Shown: positions 48,124 to 54,009 of the stretch, one piece after another
Layout of the letters: each line of letters opens with the position of its first letter
How positions within the stretch are numbered: position 1 is the stretch's first letter
Origin: Jeotgalicoccus sp.
GTDB taxonomy: Bacteria; Bacillota; Bacilli; Staphylococcales; Salinicoccaceae
Length of the DNA: 64,000 bases
Assembly (NCBI GenBank): GCA_003513765.1
Contig: DONT01000002.1
Coordinates: 101,091 to 165,090, forward strand
Direction: 5' to 3'
Program-made: the position numbers and the translations under genes
Notes under the pieces: model-generated
Told to the model about the DNA's origin: nothing
The model's input: the letters and a program-made list of their open reading frames with translations, nothing else
Databases searched by the model: none

Positions 48124-50019
48124 TTATAATTCAAAACTAATATTACTATTTTCATCAGTGTAAAATGGCTTACACTTTCTATGAGAAAGTCTAGAAAGAT
48201 TAATTTTTTTTGATTTATCCCCTACTTCTATATCAAAAAATTTATCTTTGCTTGTTATTGATAAACTTAAATCATAAATTTCATTTTTTGGATAATGTTT
48301 AGCATAGAATTCAATTTCTAAAATAAATATATCTTTTTCAACAGAAATAATTTTTGCATCTACAATATCTATAATTTTATTTTCTTGGTCCTTGATAGTT
48401 GATCTATGAGTAAAATTACCTTTAAAAATAGGTTCAATTTTATCTTTAGAATTCAACTTAACTTCTAAAAATATTTTATAGGTTAACTTTTTAAATTGAG
48501 GTCGTTTCAAATCTATTAATTTAACTTTTGGATGCATTTCGCTAGATTCAATTTTAACGTCTTCAAATAAATTAACCCAAGCATTTGCAAACTCTTCGTT
48601 CGAAAAATTCCTTGCTTTTTTTATAGCATATTCATTATATTTTTCTTTTTCTTTTTCTGACTTATTTAAATACTTTATTATATGGTTAGATAATTCATTT
48701 ATATTACCGTTTTCGACTAAATAACCATTTTTATCATTATCTATCATATCTGACGGACCATATTTAATATCGTATGCAATGACCGGCGTACCATTTGCTA
48801 TACTTTCTTGTATTGCTAACGCAAATCCTTCATATTGTGAAGTAAGTAGAGAACAGTCTGCTGATTGCAAAATTGTATTGATTTCTTTTGAATAACCCAT
48901 CAATTTAACTTGATTTTTAAGCCCTAATTTATTTATTAACTCTTGTAATTTAGATTTTTCTTTACCCTCACCATATATATGGAGAGTCGCATTAGGTACT
49001 TTTTTTACAACTTTTTCAAAGGCTTTGATACTATGATCCAATCTTTTTTCAGGATGAAGTCTCGAAACAATTATTACTCTGTTACTAATCTTCGTTTCCT
49101 TTATGTCAGGTATCTGTATTGAGTGCGGTATGACATAATAATTATTTCTAGTACCAAATCTTTTTGCTATATCTTCTTTTTGCTTTTTTGTGAGTAGTAC
49201 CAATGCTTCGACATTATTTAAATTATTTAATACGTCTCGATTACCAGTTCGGATTATATCTGTACCTGGACGAATATGAATACTATGAGTCATAAATATT
49301 TTTCTTACATAGCTGTTCTTAATGTTCATAATTACTGGGTCTAATCCTCTTGCTTCTCCTACTATATAAGTTAACGGTGTCTTAATATATAAGTTAATGA
49401 AATACTCTTTAAATTCATTAAACGAATTAAATCTAATAGGTTTTCTAACAAATAAAACTATACTAATAACTTTATCTGATTTATTAGCGGCATCAAATTC
49501 TCTAGTTAAAAATGGTGTTTGGTCTTTTCTATAAAATACTTGCCTTGCTAAATATTGATTTGAATAGAAACTTTGCCAATATATATAACCATCTTTATCT
49601 ATTACATCTTTACTTGTACAAACACTATTTTTATTAAAATGTTTTACTTCTTTAATATTATCTTTATTATAATAAATTTCAAGAACTTTAAATCCATCTT
49701 TGTAATATTCAAATTTGTTATTATTAATTTTTATTGGTATATAAGAACTAGTATCAATTTTGTACTTCTTAATTTCATAACTTAAGTCATGCTCTCTAAA
49801 ATAATCATTTATATTGTATATTTCCACTTTATCTTTTAAATTATATCTCTCAATTATAGTAGACTTAATATCTTTAAAGTTAGTTGTTGCATGAAATGTT
49901 AATATAATCGAATTTATACTTTTCTCATCATGTAATATTCTAGCCTTATTTAATAATGAAGAAGTTAATCCACCATGATCCGCATCTAACCTACTTGTTA
50001 CAAAAACAACATTTTTCAT
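48124..50019 (-). CDS. TarM/TagE-like GT4 wall-teichoic-acid glycosyltransferase with a C-terminal extension of about 130 aa
   Basis: LDADHGGLTSSLLNKARIL (TarM-type N-terminal domain), HIYGEGKEK, TSQYEGFALAIQES and AYDIKYGPSDMIDNDKNGYLVEN closely parallel S. aureus TarM as I recall it. The gene is very AT-rich. Confidence 0.8.
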   Translation of the reverse strand: MKNVVFVTSRLDADHGGLTSSLLNKARILHDEKSINSIILTFHATTNFKDIKSTIIERYNLKDKVEIYNINDYFREHDLSYEIKKYKIDTSSYIPIKINNNKFEYYKDGFKVLEIYYNKDNIKEVKHFNKNSVCTSKDVIDKDGYIYWQSFYSNQYLARQVFYRKDQTPFLTREFDAANKSDKVISIVLFVRKPIRFNSFNEFKEYFINLYIKTPLTYIVGEARGLDPVIMNIKNSYVRKIFMTHSIHIRPGTDIIRTGNRDVLNNLNNVEALVLLTKKQKEDIAKRFGTRNNYYVIPHSIQIPDIKETKISNRVIIVSRLHPEKRLDHSIKAFEKVVKKVPNATLHIYGEGKEKSKLQELINKLGLKNQVKLMGYSKEINTILQSADCSLLTSQYEGFALAIQESIANGTPVIAYDIKYGPSDMIDNDKNGYLVENGNINELSNHIIKYLNKSEKEKEKYNEYAIKKARNFSNEEFANAWVNLFEDVKIESSEMHPKVKLIDLKRPQFKKLTYKIFLEVKLNSKDKIEPIFKGNFTHRSTIKDQENKIIDIVDAKIISVEKDIFILEIEFYAKHYPKNEIYDLSLSITSKDKFFDIEVGDKSKKINLSRLSHRKCKPFYTDENSNISFEL

Positions 50020-50058
50020 TTCTATCCCCCCGTATTTTTAAAACTAAATTTAAAATCA

Positions 50059-50400
50059 TCAGTAATTTTTGTCTAACATATTGCTAAATGAGTTCCTACC
50101 TATAAGATATTTTGATAAAGGAAAGTGTGATAATAAAATAGCAATTCCAATACTAAAACCAAGAGTAAACATTACCATAAGAATTAAAAATAATATTGGT
50201 ATTTCTACAAAAGAGGCGAGACCTCTAGACAAGTATGAGTTAATTAATGGATGAGATAAATAGACAAAAAATGAGACTTCACTAATAACTAATAATAATG
50301 TAAGTTTGTATTTTCCTAAAACTTTCATAACATATAAAACAATTAAAAATGTTAATACAGTATATAAAATTATATCAAATGCTGCGACGCAGTGGTAATA
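50059..50400 (-). pseudogene. Acyltransferase-3 family (OatA-like) gene, C-terminal fragment only
   Basis: The open frame starts right after a TAA at 50401-50403 with no plausible start for a full-length protein. It encodes only the last about 113 aa (..FFVYLSHPLINSYL.. TM segments). Confidence 0.6.
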
Positions 50401-50448
50401 TTAGAGCGCCGTAAGCATTCTGTCAAAATTATATTGCTAAACCTTAAA

Positions 50449-52243: not shown

Positions 52244-52271
52244 CCTACTATTTCACTCCTTATCTATTTTT

Positions 52272-53300
52272 TTACATAGTCCATTTAATTACTGTTTTCC
52301 CCCATGATGTTGATAAATCTTCTTCGAATGCCATTACAACATCATTAATAGTTTTAACTTCGAACTCATTACCTTTCAGGAGTGATAATTTGTCAATAAC
52401 ATCAGGATATTCTTTATAAAATTTAGCAATATCTCTAAAGTCCTGAGCACCGCTGCGACTACTACCGAACATTGTCAGACCTTTTTCTAAAACCAGACGT
52501 GTATTTATTTCTATTGGATATTCACTTACACCTAGAAGGCTGATTGTACCTTCTGGTGAGATGAGATCGATCATCTGATCTAGGGCAGATTGGCTACCTT
52601 TACCCCCTACACATTCAAAACCATGGTCAAATGTGATGTCTTCAGGTATCTCATGAATGTTATAAACTTCTTCAATAAATGAGAAATGGCTTAATTTGTA
52701 AGCAGTTTTACCAAATGCATAAATTTTAGCATCTGGGTAAAGTTTGTTTAAGAGAATAGCTGTAATGTATCCTAAGTTTCCATCTCCCCAGATACCAAAG
52801 CTGTTCTTATTAGCATTTGATCTGCTTTCAAGTCGTTGAATTGCATGCCAACTTACACTCACCAATTCAGAATAAGCGACGGTACTTAAATCTTTAATGC
52901 TTTCATCCAATTCAACAATTCTATCATGTTTCATGAAGACATAATCTTGCATAAATCCATCAAAACCACTGGATCTGAATTTACTGCTAGGTAAATAGTT
53001 TTCAGCTATGACAGGGTCAGCTTCAATAGGAGTGTTAGGAACCATAATGACTTTTGTACCAACCTTATATTTACCTTTGTTGTCATAAACTATTTCTCCA
53101 ACCCCTTCATGAATGAGAGACATTGGAAGTTTCTTTTTAAGAACATTTTTATTTCGGGTGCCCGTATAATACCTTTGATCAGCTGCACAGATAGATAAGT
53201 ATAATGGTCTTATAACTACTTTATCACCTTTAACATTTTCATTATTATATGTGACTTCAAACTGTCTAGGGGACACGAGCTGGTATAACTGATTAATCAC
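52272..53300 (-). CDS. tarJ: Ribulose-5-phosphate reductase
   Basis: 342 aa. [20 protein letters not shown] and [15 protein letters not shown] are TarJ-typical. It overlaps tarI by 8 nt. Confidence 0.88.
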
Positions 53301-54009
53301 TTGACATTCCCCCTTTTATAATTGAGTTCGCAACTTTAAGATCATAAGGTGTCGTTATTTTAATATTAAATAATTCGCCGGCAACCAATTTTACCGTTTT
53401 ATCGGCTACAACTAGGATCTTGCATGCATCAGTCATTATCTTTTTATCTTCGTCTGATAATCTATTGTAAGAATCTCTTAATAAGTTAATATTGAAAGAT
53501 TGAGGTGTTTGCCCTTGATACATTTCATTTCTGACGGGTATTGATTTTATAGAATCTCCGTCTGTTGAAGTAACGATTGTATCTATCGCAGTAATTACAG
53601 TATCTACTGCTCCATGCTCCAATACATTTACAATATTTTCTTTAATAATACGATGTGTCAAGAATGGTCTAACAGCATCATGTGTGACGATTACATCCTC
53701 CGGGGTGATTCCATTTTGTTTTTCTATTGCATGGATAATATTCATGATTGTTTCATTTCGGTCAGAACCGCCTTCAACCACTTCAATTCTCTCATCATTA
53801 ATATTGTGTTTTTTTAATGTGTCTTGTGTATGTGCTATCCACTTTTTAGGTGTAGCGATAAATATTTTATCAAATTCACTTGTGAGCAAGAATTTTTCAA
53901 CCGTATGAACAAGTATAGGCTTCCCATCTAAGTCTAAAAATTGTTTGGGTAATGGGACATTCCCCATCCTTGAACCTATTCCTCCAGCTAATATGCCAGC
54001 ATAAATCAT
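53293..54009 (-). CDS. tarI: Ribitol-5-phosphate cytidylyltransferase
   Basis: 238 aa. [33 protein letters not shown] and [10 protein letters not shown] are TarI/IspD-type motifs. Confidence 0.9.

Follow-up and report, generated by a model that had tools for sequence, protein, structure and literature searches.

An island downstream of rlmH in a cheese-rind Jeotgalicoccus carries a two-block, putative wall-teichoic-acid module of staphylococcal ancestry

Directly past rlmH, a 64,000-nucleotide (nt) stretch of a Jeotgalicoccus contig (GCA_003513765.1, DONT01000002.1, positions 101,091 to 165,090 of the forward strand; hereafter the window, in whose coordinates positions are given) carries a ~13.2-kb island riddled with insertion sequences (ISs). 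Downstream of walRK-yycHI-walJ-rlmH, this island holds tarI, tarJ and tarL together with a gene for a 631-amino-acid (aa) TarM-like glycosyltransferase (GT), which we call GT631. We read these genes as an accessory, two-block module of staphylococcal ancestry, putatively for ribitol-phosphate (RboP) wall teichoic acid (WTA), and give this reading, inferred function included, a probability of roughly 0.7. The DNA comes from a cheese metagenome (ERR699786, PRJEB6314), in which it lies on a 439.5-kb contig. The module and its internal landmarks are as follows:

53293..54009, minus strand: tarI, ribitol-5-phosphate cytidylyltransferase, 238 aa (NCBIfam NF001183, 398.5 bits; cut-off 166)
52272..53300, minus strand: tarJ, ribulose-5-phosphate reductase, 342 aa (matches Staphylococcus aureus 6xh9 end to end, E 1.6e-169)
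50555..52243, minus strand: tarL, ribitol-phosphate polymerase, 562 aa (NCBIfam TarL equivalog, 1034.8 bits; cut-off 1000)
50449-50494, minus strand: terminator-like hairpin of tarL (inverted repeat I5, 22 nt, 91% complementary)
50373-50380, minus strand: recombination junction, where the tarIJL block ends and a block like that of Staphylococcus equorum starts
50059..50328, minus strand: 3' remnant of an acyltransferase gene, 89 codons (Pfam Acyl_transf_3 C-terminus)
48124..50019, minus strand: GT631, TarM-family retaining GT4, 631 aa (Pfam Glycos_transf_1, 142 bits)

Family profiles and Protein Data Bank (PDB) matches to these four intact minus-strand open reading frames (ORFs) bear out a preliminary description of the DNA, which had named them tarI, tarJ, tarL and a TarM-like GT gene. 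TarI is matched over its full length by S. aureus TarI (6xhp, E 1.7e-116), and its gene overlaps tarJ by 8 nt. TarL aligns over positions 1-561 of the 562 in the equivalog profile, matches S. aureus TarL 8va1 end to end (E 1e-258) and retains the catalytic-site run WHAVGAFK. By these features, each of the three putatively belongs to an RboP-WTA synthesis module (tarI-tarJ-tarL). Long runs identical to S. aureus had also been pointed out: the TarL run WHAVGAFKTVGFSRTGKKGGPF is exact in the native S. aureus protein (PDB chain 8va1 carries N instead of H within it) and a 24-residue TarI run is exact in 6xhp, but a 15-residue TarJ run differs from 6xh9 by a single L-to-M change. Overall, TarL is 66% identical to S. 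aureus, while TarJ and TarI are about 71-72% identical to S. simiae, a close relative of S. aureus. The production of CDP-ribitol by TarJ and TarI, and of RboP polymer from it by TarL, is established for the S. aureus orthologues and for S. epidermidis E73 (PMC1458327; preprint 10.1101/2024.03.04.583386).

The best solved relatives of GT631 in a PDB sequence search were TarM(Se) (E 1e-49) and TarM (E 1e-45). In its AlphaFold 2 (AF2) model (pLDDT 92.7; 41 homologues in the alignment), residues 1 to ~490 are predicted to superpose on TarM(Se)-4RboP (7qh9, the top Foldseek match, TMt 0.88), and the model also superposes on TarM and SdgB, with TMt 0.79-0.88 to TarM/TarM(Se). Like TarM, TarM(Se) and TagE (S. 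epidermidis, B. subtilis), GT631 has a GT-B core of the GT4 family, an E-x7-E motif and a beta-rich insertion: the pair E397/E405 is invariant in the 41 homologues, as are other catalytic-core residues, and the insertion (the 'hub', or DUF1975) appears in the model as ten strands at residues 94-197 and is included in a structural alignment with TarM of ~500 columns. Pfam PF09318 is recorded in more distant homologues but absent for GT631, and the best NCBIfam matches of GT631 are SdgA/SdgB, far under cut-off. Unlike TarM, TarM(Se) and TagE, to which it is ~26-30% identical, GT631 carries a ~135-residue C-terminal beta-sandwich. This extension, noticed in the preliminary description, is real (~130-140 residues, with an all-beta domain at 498-630) but not specific to this protein, as it is conserved in a ~630-aa family across staphylococci and Mammaliicoccus. 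Structure prediction, suggested earlier as a check, returned a TarS-type fold: the best matches of the modelled domain are the C-terminal domains of TarS (5u02/5tz8) and Listeria RmlT, followed by CBM21 modules (E about 1e-4, TMq 0.54-0.57). No Pfam match was obtained when the C-terminal or the N-terminal part of GT631 was searched on its own. Precomputed Pfam TarS_C1 matches in several GT631 homologues agree with the structural matches; the extension is a TarS_C1-like domain.

GT631 is 96-97% identical at the aa level to proteins of S. equorum, S. arlettae, S. hominis and S. saprophyticus, and the ~630-aa family is also found on a ccrAB staphylococcal cassette chromosome (SCC), on an att-bounded S. 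saprophyticus element with WTA-type genes and on a mobilizable S. aureus plasmid. The native WTA locus in S. simiae runs tarI-tarJ-tarL and then, directly, a GT631 family gene; this synteny is the best evidence at hand for RboP-WTA as the target of the family, and GT631 homologues are likewise syntenic with other WTA-type genes in S. saprophyticus. Judging by this synteny, GT631 would transfer an alpha-linked hexose or HexNAc to WTA repeat units. No characterised member of the ~630-aa subfamily was apparent in the literature searched. TagN, the GalNAc transferase of S. aureus ST395, was considered as an identity for GT631 and ruled out, since TagN has an N-terminal TagB-like domain and differs in architecture (PMC3993852).

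Although the four genes had been described as one cassette, they fall into two blocks that differ in origin and age and meet at 50373-50380, within a truncated acyltransferase gene. On the GT631 side, window positions 48104-50380 are 98.2% identical in nt (2277 bp) to S. equorum CP013114.1, in which the order is rlmH, Acyl_transf_3, GT631 and then ccrB/ccrA; the S. equorum element also carries SAUGI, DUF960 and DUF1643, and its CcrA and CcrB both score above their equivalog cut-offs. An intact 352-aa Acyl_transf_3 gene lies directly upstream of the GT631 gene in staphylococci (loci L101, L102 and L108), and the S. equorum match comprises the 3' end of the intact acyltransferase gene plus GT631, so the ORF at 50059-50328 is the stump of that acyltransferase; the remnant is 82-83% identical in aa to intact genes in staphylococcal loci (L100 and L101). 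We propose that the GT block (48104-50380) was recently copied from staphylococcal SCC cargo like that of the S. equorum rlmH element.

On the other side of the junction, nine contigs drawn from several samples carry tarIJL with 100% DNA identity. Seven contigs of other samples match the window at 100% from 50373 to at least 54306, two of them to 55698, and all seven lose similarity at 50373. We set this block at 50373 to at least 55698. The tarIJL block is 86.6% identical in nt to an IS-flanked copy in Salinicoccus siamensis (GCA_042652505.1), and no sampled Staphylococcus matches it above 78%. In S. equorum GCA_035794315.1 (L100), tarIJL lies 1.6 kb past rlmH in the same orientation and is 78% identical in nt to the window. 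That genome has a 12.7-kb post-rlmH segment (L100 6623-19352) bounded by SCC att-type direct repeats, with tarI-tarJ-tarL, a 1623-aa GT4/TPR/glycerophosphotransferase fusion and an acyltransferase as cargo; a ccr gene was not seen in it (10 kb fetched), and by its content the segment looks like a pseudo-SCC with WTA cargo. One of the contigs with the identical tarIJL block (L002, from SRR35188724, 8232 bp) has this block followed by IS21 at the 50373 breakpoint and then a 383-aa GT; ~76-bp IS30-end sequences stand inverted at both contig ends, suggesting a composite-transposon-like unit.

Both blocks differ in composition from the host chromosome. The GC content drops from ~40% to 25-35% across 48-56 kb of the window, third-codon-position GC (GC3) is 26% in tarIJL and 16% in GT631 versus 39-46% in walK-rlmH, and the overall GC of tarIJL is 32% versus ~40% for the Jeotgalicoccus host. 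A GC of 32% fits Staphylococcus genomes and is lower than that of Salinicoccus. In 28 related loci (from Jeotgalicoccus, Salinicoccus, Lacicoccus, Corticicoccus, Phocicoccus, Aliicoccus and Nosocomiicoccus), the 10 kb past rlmH contain no tarI, tarJ or tarL; tar orthologs at this locus throughout the host genus, which the preliminary description had named as evidence that would overturn acquisition, are absent. It had said the same of a genome in which this was the sole WTA polymer locus, and a different, genus-wide polymerase of the glycerol-phosphate (GroP) type is found in Jeotgalicoccus and Salinicoccus.

Phylogeny places tarL among staphylococci. In a 5.8-billion-protein collection, the best 120 TarL homologues are all staphylococcal except for the window protein itself and those of Salinicoccus siamensis (89%) and Tetragenococcus (~67%). 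In a neighbour-joining (NJ) tree with 200 bootstraps, Jeotgalicoccus and Salinicoccus siamensis form a pair (support 100) within an S. saprophyticus-group clade (86), outside which S. aureus, S. simiae and S. epidermidis fall (82-92). Compared with one S. equorum genome, identity is 84% for TarI, 82% for TarJ and 76% for TarL, versus 66% for WalJ, 60% for WalK, 54% for RlmH, 29% for YycH and 25% for YycI, in line with the initial impression that YycH and YycI are far more diverged from Staphylococcus than the Tar proteins are. Foreign composition, the TarL tree and the 98.2% nt match of the GT block to S. equorum SCC cargo all uphold the staphylococcal ancestry first suggested, but the donor needs revision: the nearest Staphylococcus is in the saprophyticus/equorum group (76-84%) and is not S. 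aureus (66%). The closest tarIJL overall is that of Salinicoccus siamensis, not of a Staphylococcus. Its TarI, TarJ and TarL are 95%, 95% and 89% identical in aa to those of the window, whereas the core proteins of the window are 43-83% identical to those of Salinicoccus species, making vertical inheritance very unlikely. With absence from the same locus in relatives, foreign composition and a discordant phylogeny, the module is, on comparative grounds, accessory and horizontally acquired.

In the mechanism that we propose, TarJ would reduce ribulose-5-phosphate to ribitol-5-phosphate, TarI would convert this to CDP-ribitol, and TarL would polymerise ribitol-phosphate onto the lipid-linked, GroP-primed linkage unit of the host. 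Host TarO/A/B(F), TarGH and LCP functions would supply priming, export and ligation. The cell would then make a second, Staphylococcus-type RboP polymer bearing an alpha-linked sugar added by GT631, and the decorated polymer may present an altered phage-receptor surface. The genes themselves may have entered by an SCC-mediated route, with IS-mediated decay following. Expression, polymer chemistry and the acceptor and sugar specificity of GT631 are what we infer here. A resident GroP-type pathway that could supply the host functions is suggested by a GT2+CDP-glycerol glycerophosphotransferase conserved in at least six named Jeotgalicoccus species or strains and in many Salinicoccus, including Salinicoccus siamensis, with 63-88% identity across the two genera. 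In J. nanhaiensis (locus L023, 12526-19891), an IS3b-like copy is followed by pepF, the GT2+glycerophosphotransferase gene (708 aa) and a gene for a 523-aa GT4.

Several points weigh against this reading. TarL requires a lipid-linked GroP-primed linkage unit, an ABC exporter and LCP ligases. The preliminary description had called the four genes a self-sufficient set, but TarO/A/B/F, TarGH and LCP functions are not in the window; priming, export and ligation genes, or any other tag/tar gene, were not found in its 64 kb, so that the fit of TarL with the linkage unit of the host is assumed. S. hominis usually has GroP-type WTA, and with a near-identical GT631 in that species, the acceptor need not be RboP. 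The window has neither ccr nor a second att site, and it is the donor contexts that suggest SCC-type entry. The TarL tree is an NJ tree in which certain key nodes have 68-86% support. Finally, tarIJL is 16-24% diverged from sampled staphylococci at the protein level; together with the closest copy being in Salinicoccus, this implies that the tarIJL transfer was old, indirect, or from an unsampled donor.

Alternatively, the genes may be intact but make no RboP-WTA in this host, either as a decaying passenger or because their products serve another polymer. GT631 could decorate a protein, in the manner of SdgA/SdgB, or a host GroP polymer; CDP-ribitol made through tarIJ could go into a capsule-like polymer. 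This is the alternative that survives best, though we think it unlikely. The island is rich in remnants (hsdM, the restriction-modification (R-M) methylase, IS30 and the acyltransferase are truncated), the top NCBIfam matches of GT631 are SdgA/SdgB, albeit under cut-off, and tarIJL of Salinicoccus siamensis adjoins a cap-like locus. Furthermore, GT631 moves without tarIJL in the S. equorum SCC, and a 96% identical copy is present in S. hominis. However, the four ORFs are complete and keep their conserved motifs, TarL scores above its equivalog cut-off, and tarIJL DNA is 100% conserved in nine contigs from several samples. The tarIJL-GT631 synteny in the native WTA locus of S. simiae also favors a role in RboP-WTA, as does the predicted whole-protein fold, which is nearest to TarM(Se) with its RboP tetramer.

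Transfer in the reverse direction, with tarIJL passing from halotolerant Salinicoccus/Jeotgalicoccus relatives to saprophyticus-group staphylococci, is highly improbable. The nearest staphylococcal copies (S. equorum_a, S. saprophyticus_a and S. gallinarum_a) are rare, with 1-18 cluster members, and one of them lies in an att-bounded island at rlmH. On the other hand, the Jeotgalicoccus/Salinicoccus pair sits several nodes deep among staphylococcal sequences, the GC of tarIJL is far under that of the host, and the best 120 TarL homologues include just two non-staphylococcal carriers (Tetragenococcus aside).

A native, vertically inherited WTA locus of the Jeotgalicoccus lineage is strongly disfavoured. 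The module is chromosomal and adjoins conserved core genes, Salinicoccus siamensis (in the wider family) has a close copy, and J. nanhaiensis has teichoic-acid-type genes 6-10 kb downstream of rlmH, yet GC3 (16-26% versus 39-46% in the core), the 28 relatives lacking the module at this locus, the nesting of TarL within a staphylococcal clade and the close match between the GT block and S. equorum (98.2% nt) all contradict such an origin. The Salinicoccus siamensis copy, moreover, is IS-flanked at another locus and 95/95/89% identical in aa against 43-83% for core proteins, and the polymerase conserved in the genus is the different GT2+glycerophosphotransferase. Just as remote is a metagenome assembly chimera that joined S. 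equorum DNA to a Jeotgalicoccus contig via shared ISs: both genera are plausible in a cheese metagenome, and the island is bounded by repeats and in part 98% identical to S. equorum, but an independent sample (SRR6482964) and two ERR699786 assemblies made with different software contain the same 15 kb, reaching from one Jeotgalicoccus flank to the other, at 100% identity, and the junction at 50373-50380 is inside a truncated gene, not a repeat, which together render a chimera unlikely, while tarIJL matches no sampled Staphylococcus above 78% nt and the GT block falls short of full identity to S. equorum, at 98.2%.

The accessory module of staphylococcal ancestry thus preferred lies in a host outside Staphylococcus, as had been supposed. 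In an RlmH scan of species-representative genomes, the window RlmH was 97% identical to that of J. psychrophilus DSM 19085 but only 52-57% identical to those of Staphylococcus, Mammaliicoccus and Macrococcus, and walR-rlmH DNA is 94.9% identical in nt to J. psychrophilus DSM 19085. By its core genes, the host is a cheese-rind Jeotgalicoccus near J. psychrophilus. The NCBI entries for the exact TarL and GT sequences are assigned to a metagenome-assembled Jeotgalicoccus sp. On the distal side, homology with J. nanhaiensis is regained at 43876-44159 (87% nt to L023 20142-20424, ~10 kb downstream of rlmH in that species), which sets the island at ~44160-57353 (13.2 kb); in J. nanhaiensis, the corresponding interval is occupied by other genes. 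Besides the module, the island and its borders comprise the following features:

57354..57833, minus strand: rlmH (orfX homologue; NCBIfam RlmH equivalog, 209.6 bits), with the island beginning right past its stop
56912..57353, minus strand: remnant zone, an hsdM stump and a 42-codon basic ORF (six-frame translation)
55671..56911, plus strand: IS3b, IS3-family (orfA 55746-56027, orfB 56060-56890; NCBIfam transpos_IS3, 257 bits)
55357-55674, plus strand: type III R-M methylase fragment (Pfam TypeIII_RM_meth)
54792-55370, plus strand: small serine resolvase, 192 aa (Pfam Resolvase, HTH_7)
54250..54500, minus strand: IS30-family transposase, C-terminal remnant, bordering the tarIJL block (transpos_IS30, E 3.5e-9)
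46711..48103, plus strand: IS3a, IS3-family (orfA 46733-47161, orfB 47191-48060; NCBIfam transpos_IS3, 270.9 bits)
44241..46710, plus strand: IS21-family element (istA 44350-45909, istB 45911-46684; NCBIfam transpos_IS21, IstB)
43876..44159, no strand assigned: distal chromosomal flank (J. nanhaiensis homology)

Both IS3-family elements match the transpos_IS3 model, in agreement with the earlier placement of the tar/GT set between two different elements of this family next to rlmH. IS3b is 98.4% identical in nt to a J. nanhaiensis copy that is likewise downstream of rlmH, and IS3a adjoins the end of the S. equorum-like block at 48104. The IS21-family element has 39-nt imperfect terminal inverted repeats, and the IS30 remnant matches positions 227-267 of the 267 in its NCBIfam profile. 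The hsdM stump retains ~26 codons from the start (ATG at 56990) of a type I R-M gene that IS3b truncates, with a weak match to the TIGR00497 N-terminus (E 0.0044). Between rlmH and this stump, the 42-codon, highly basic ORF (57126-57254, minus strand; MACKKATPYTRKAARVLATKGASKTSKSKAGRTLANHNHRHH) has no family match.

The integration site is that used by SCC elements, at the 3' end of rlmH (orfX), which ends with the SCC-core-like GAAGCGTATCA; the terminal GAAGCGTATCATCGTTGA (57354-57371) resembles the SCC integration core. This core is single copy in the 64 kb, even with 2-3 mismatches allowed, and there is no ccr gene in the window, in which the only recombinase is the 192-aa resolvase (21-43 bits against CcrA/B/C models, with cut-offs of 700-900). 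Lacking a ccr gene and a second att repeat, a bona fide SCC is ruled out; the island is probably a decayed SCC-derived mosaic remodelled by ISs. Pairs of att-type direct repeats are present at the S. equorum, S. saprophyticus, J. aerolatus and J. meleagridis loci. Duplicates of the GAAGCGTATCA-type core lie downstream of rlmH at 10463 and 12229 in J. aerolatus (L024) and at 10463 and 10567 in J. meleagridis (L027), suggesting past SCC-type recombination (integration or excision) in the genus. In S. saprophyticus CP133253.1 (L014), an att-bounded segment at 6301-20709 has the SCC backbone genes SAUGI, DUF960 and DUF1643 and carries a GT631 homologue (59%), an epimerase, an acyltransferase and two glycerophosphotransferase-family genes; judging by this gene content, it is another SCC-type element with teichoic-acid-type cargo. 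A 2025 survey that included three Jeotgalicoccus genomes reported SCCmec-type regions to be absent outside Staphylococcus/Mammaliicoccus (PMC12648241).

Accessory tarIJLM-type clusters had been mentioned at the outset for some S. epidermidis lineages, and they are indeed reported: S. epidermidis has an accessory tarIJLM cluster (ST10/23/87-type clones, E73) and S. capitis NRCS-A a tarLIJ marker locus (PMC10672168, PMC10634448, preprint 10.1101/2024.03.04.583386). In the literature, strain-variable tarIJL(+TarM) cassettes are known from S. epidermidis, S. capitis NRCS-A and S. warneri, and S. equorum, S. saprophyticus, S. arlettae and S. xylosus are known to have RboP-WTA; we also found a plasmid-borne S. 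epidermidis tarIJLM-type copy. The S. epidermidis cluster confers S. aureus-type RboP-WTA and is strain-variable and mobile. As with the S. epidermidis and S. capitis clusters, tarIJL is accompanied here by a TarM-family GT, and the set may be an addition to another WTA pathway of the host. Unlike the S. epidermidis cluster, the window module is in another genus, lies at rlmH, and has a GT and tarIJL acquired separately; its TarL is 66% identical to the S. epidermidis copy, and GT631 is ~27% identical to TarM(Se) and has the extra C-terminal domain.

The island resembles SCC or pseudo-SCC elements with envelope cargo in lying directly past rlmH and in its acyltransferase remnant plus GT631, 98.2% identical in nt to S. 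equorum, and its tarIJL has the same orientation relative to rlmH as in the att-bounded S. equorum element. Unlike SCC, it lacks ccr and a second att site, and it is bounded or interrupted by IS3, IS21 and IS30 elements. Similarly, the Salinicoccus siamensis locus has IS-flanked tarIJL beside a TarM-like GT4, in addition to the GT2+glycerophosphotransferase of the family, but it adjoins a cap-like locus rather than rlmH, its ISs are IS256-type and ISL3 elements, and its GT has 494 aa, convergent orientation and 26% identity to GT631. An 11.5-kb plasmid labelled Yoonia sp. (L109, NZ_CP151763.1) has 29% GC, a MOBP relaxase, tarIJL (74% nt to the window, with tarL matched in two pieces) and a TarM-like GT; it looks like a Staphylococcus-type plasmid misattributed to an alphaproteobacterium. 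What is already known, then, is accessory tarIJL(+GT) cassettes that alter WTA chemistry within Staphylococcus and, in principle, SCCs with envelope cargo; what is new is the genus, the rlmH location outside Staphylococcus, and near-identical S. equorum SCC cargo in Jeotgalicoccus.

S. equorum shares cheese rinds with Jeotgalicoccus, and the island offers concrete evidence that surface-glycopolymer genes and SCC-derived DNA cross genera in a food microbiome. It also brings to notice a mobile glycosyltransferase family of ~630 aa. The WTA type is the main determinant of phage adsorption to staphylococci and hence of transduction partners. This case is also a tractable system for learning whether staphylococcal phages gain a new host when its WTA is switched. 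We offer only tentatively, as a doubtful extension, the idea that staphylococcal transducing phages can adsorb to Jeotgalicoccus via RboP-WTA, that GT631 represents a mobile receptor-editing class and that SCCs flow across genera. If phages do adsorb in this way, it would explain the arrival of a 98%-identical S. equorum SCC piece at rlmH, and the island would at once result from gene flow between genera on cheese rinds and promote it. SCC-borne DNA would then cross from Staphylococcus/Mammaliicoccus into the Salinicoccus-Jeotgalicoccus group, and GT631 would define a WTA glycosyltransferase class with a TarM-type core and a TarS-type C-terminal domain, carried on SCCs and plasmids.

Searches for other vehicles returned little. 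A megablast comparison of window positions 48000-56950 with PLSDB matched IS3 fragments only, leaving a plasmid origin unsupported, and a protein-level plasmid search found related but distant copies; no relatives of GT631 or TarL were found in IMG/VR that would point to phage carriage. Because the DNA is AT-rich, scanning it for consensus promoters and terminators was not informative (41 sites versus 41.3 expected). Beyond the island, two hypothetical genes (40954-41772 and 42006-42362) have homologues (78-83%) between walJ and rlmH in Lacicoccus/Salinicoccus (L026, L028, L032 and L033), which indicates rearrangement around rlmH. Elsewhere in the window, a SAM riboswitch (34495-34598, plus strand; Rfam RF00162, 75.3 bits) lies upstream of an ORF (34942-35436) whose product has an acyltransferase domain of the CrtO type. 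There are three tRNA genes, at 37739-37822 (plus strand), 63662-63734 and 63769-63840 (both minus strand), the first of which stands alone amid small hypothetical genes.

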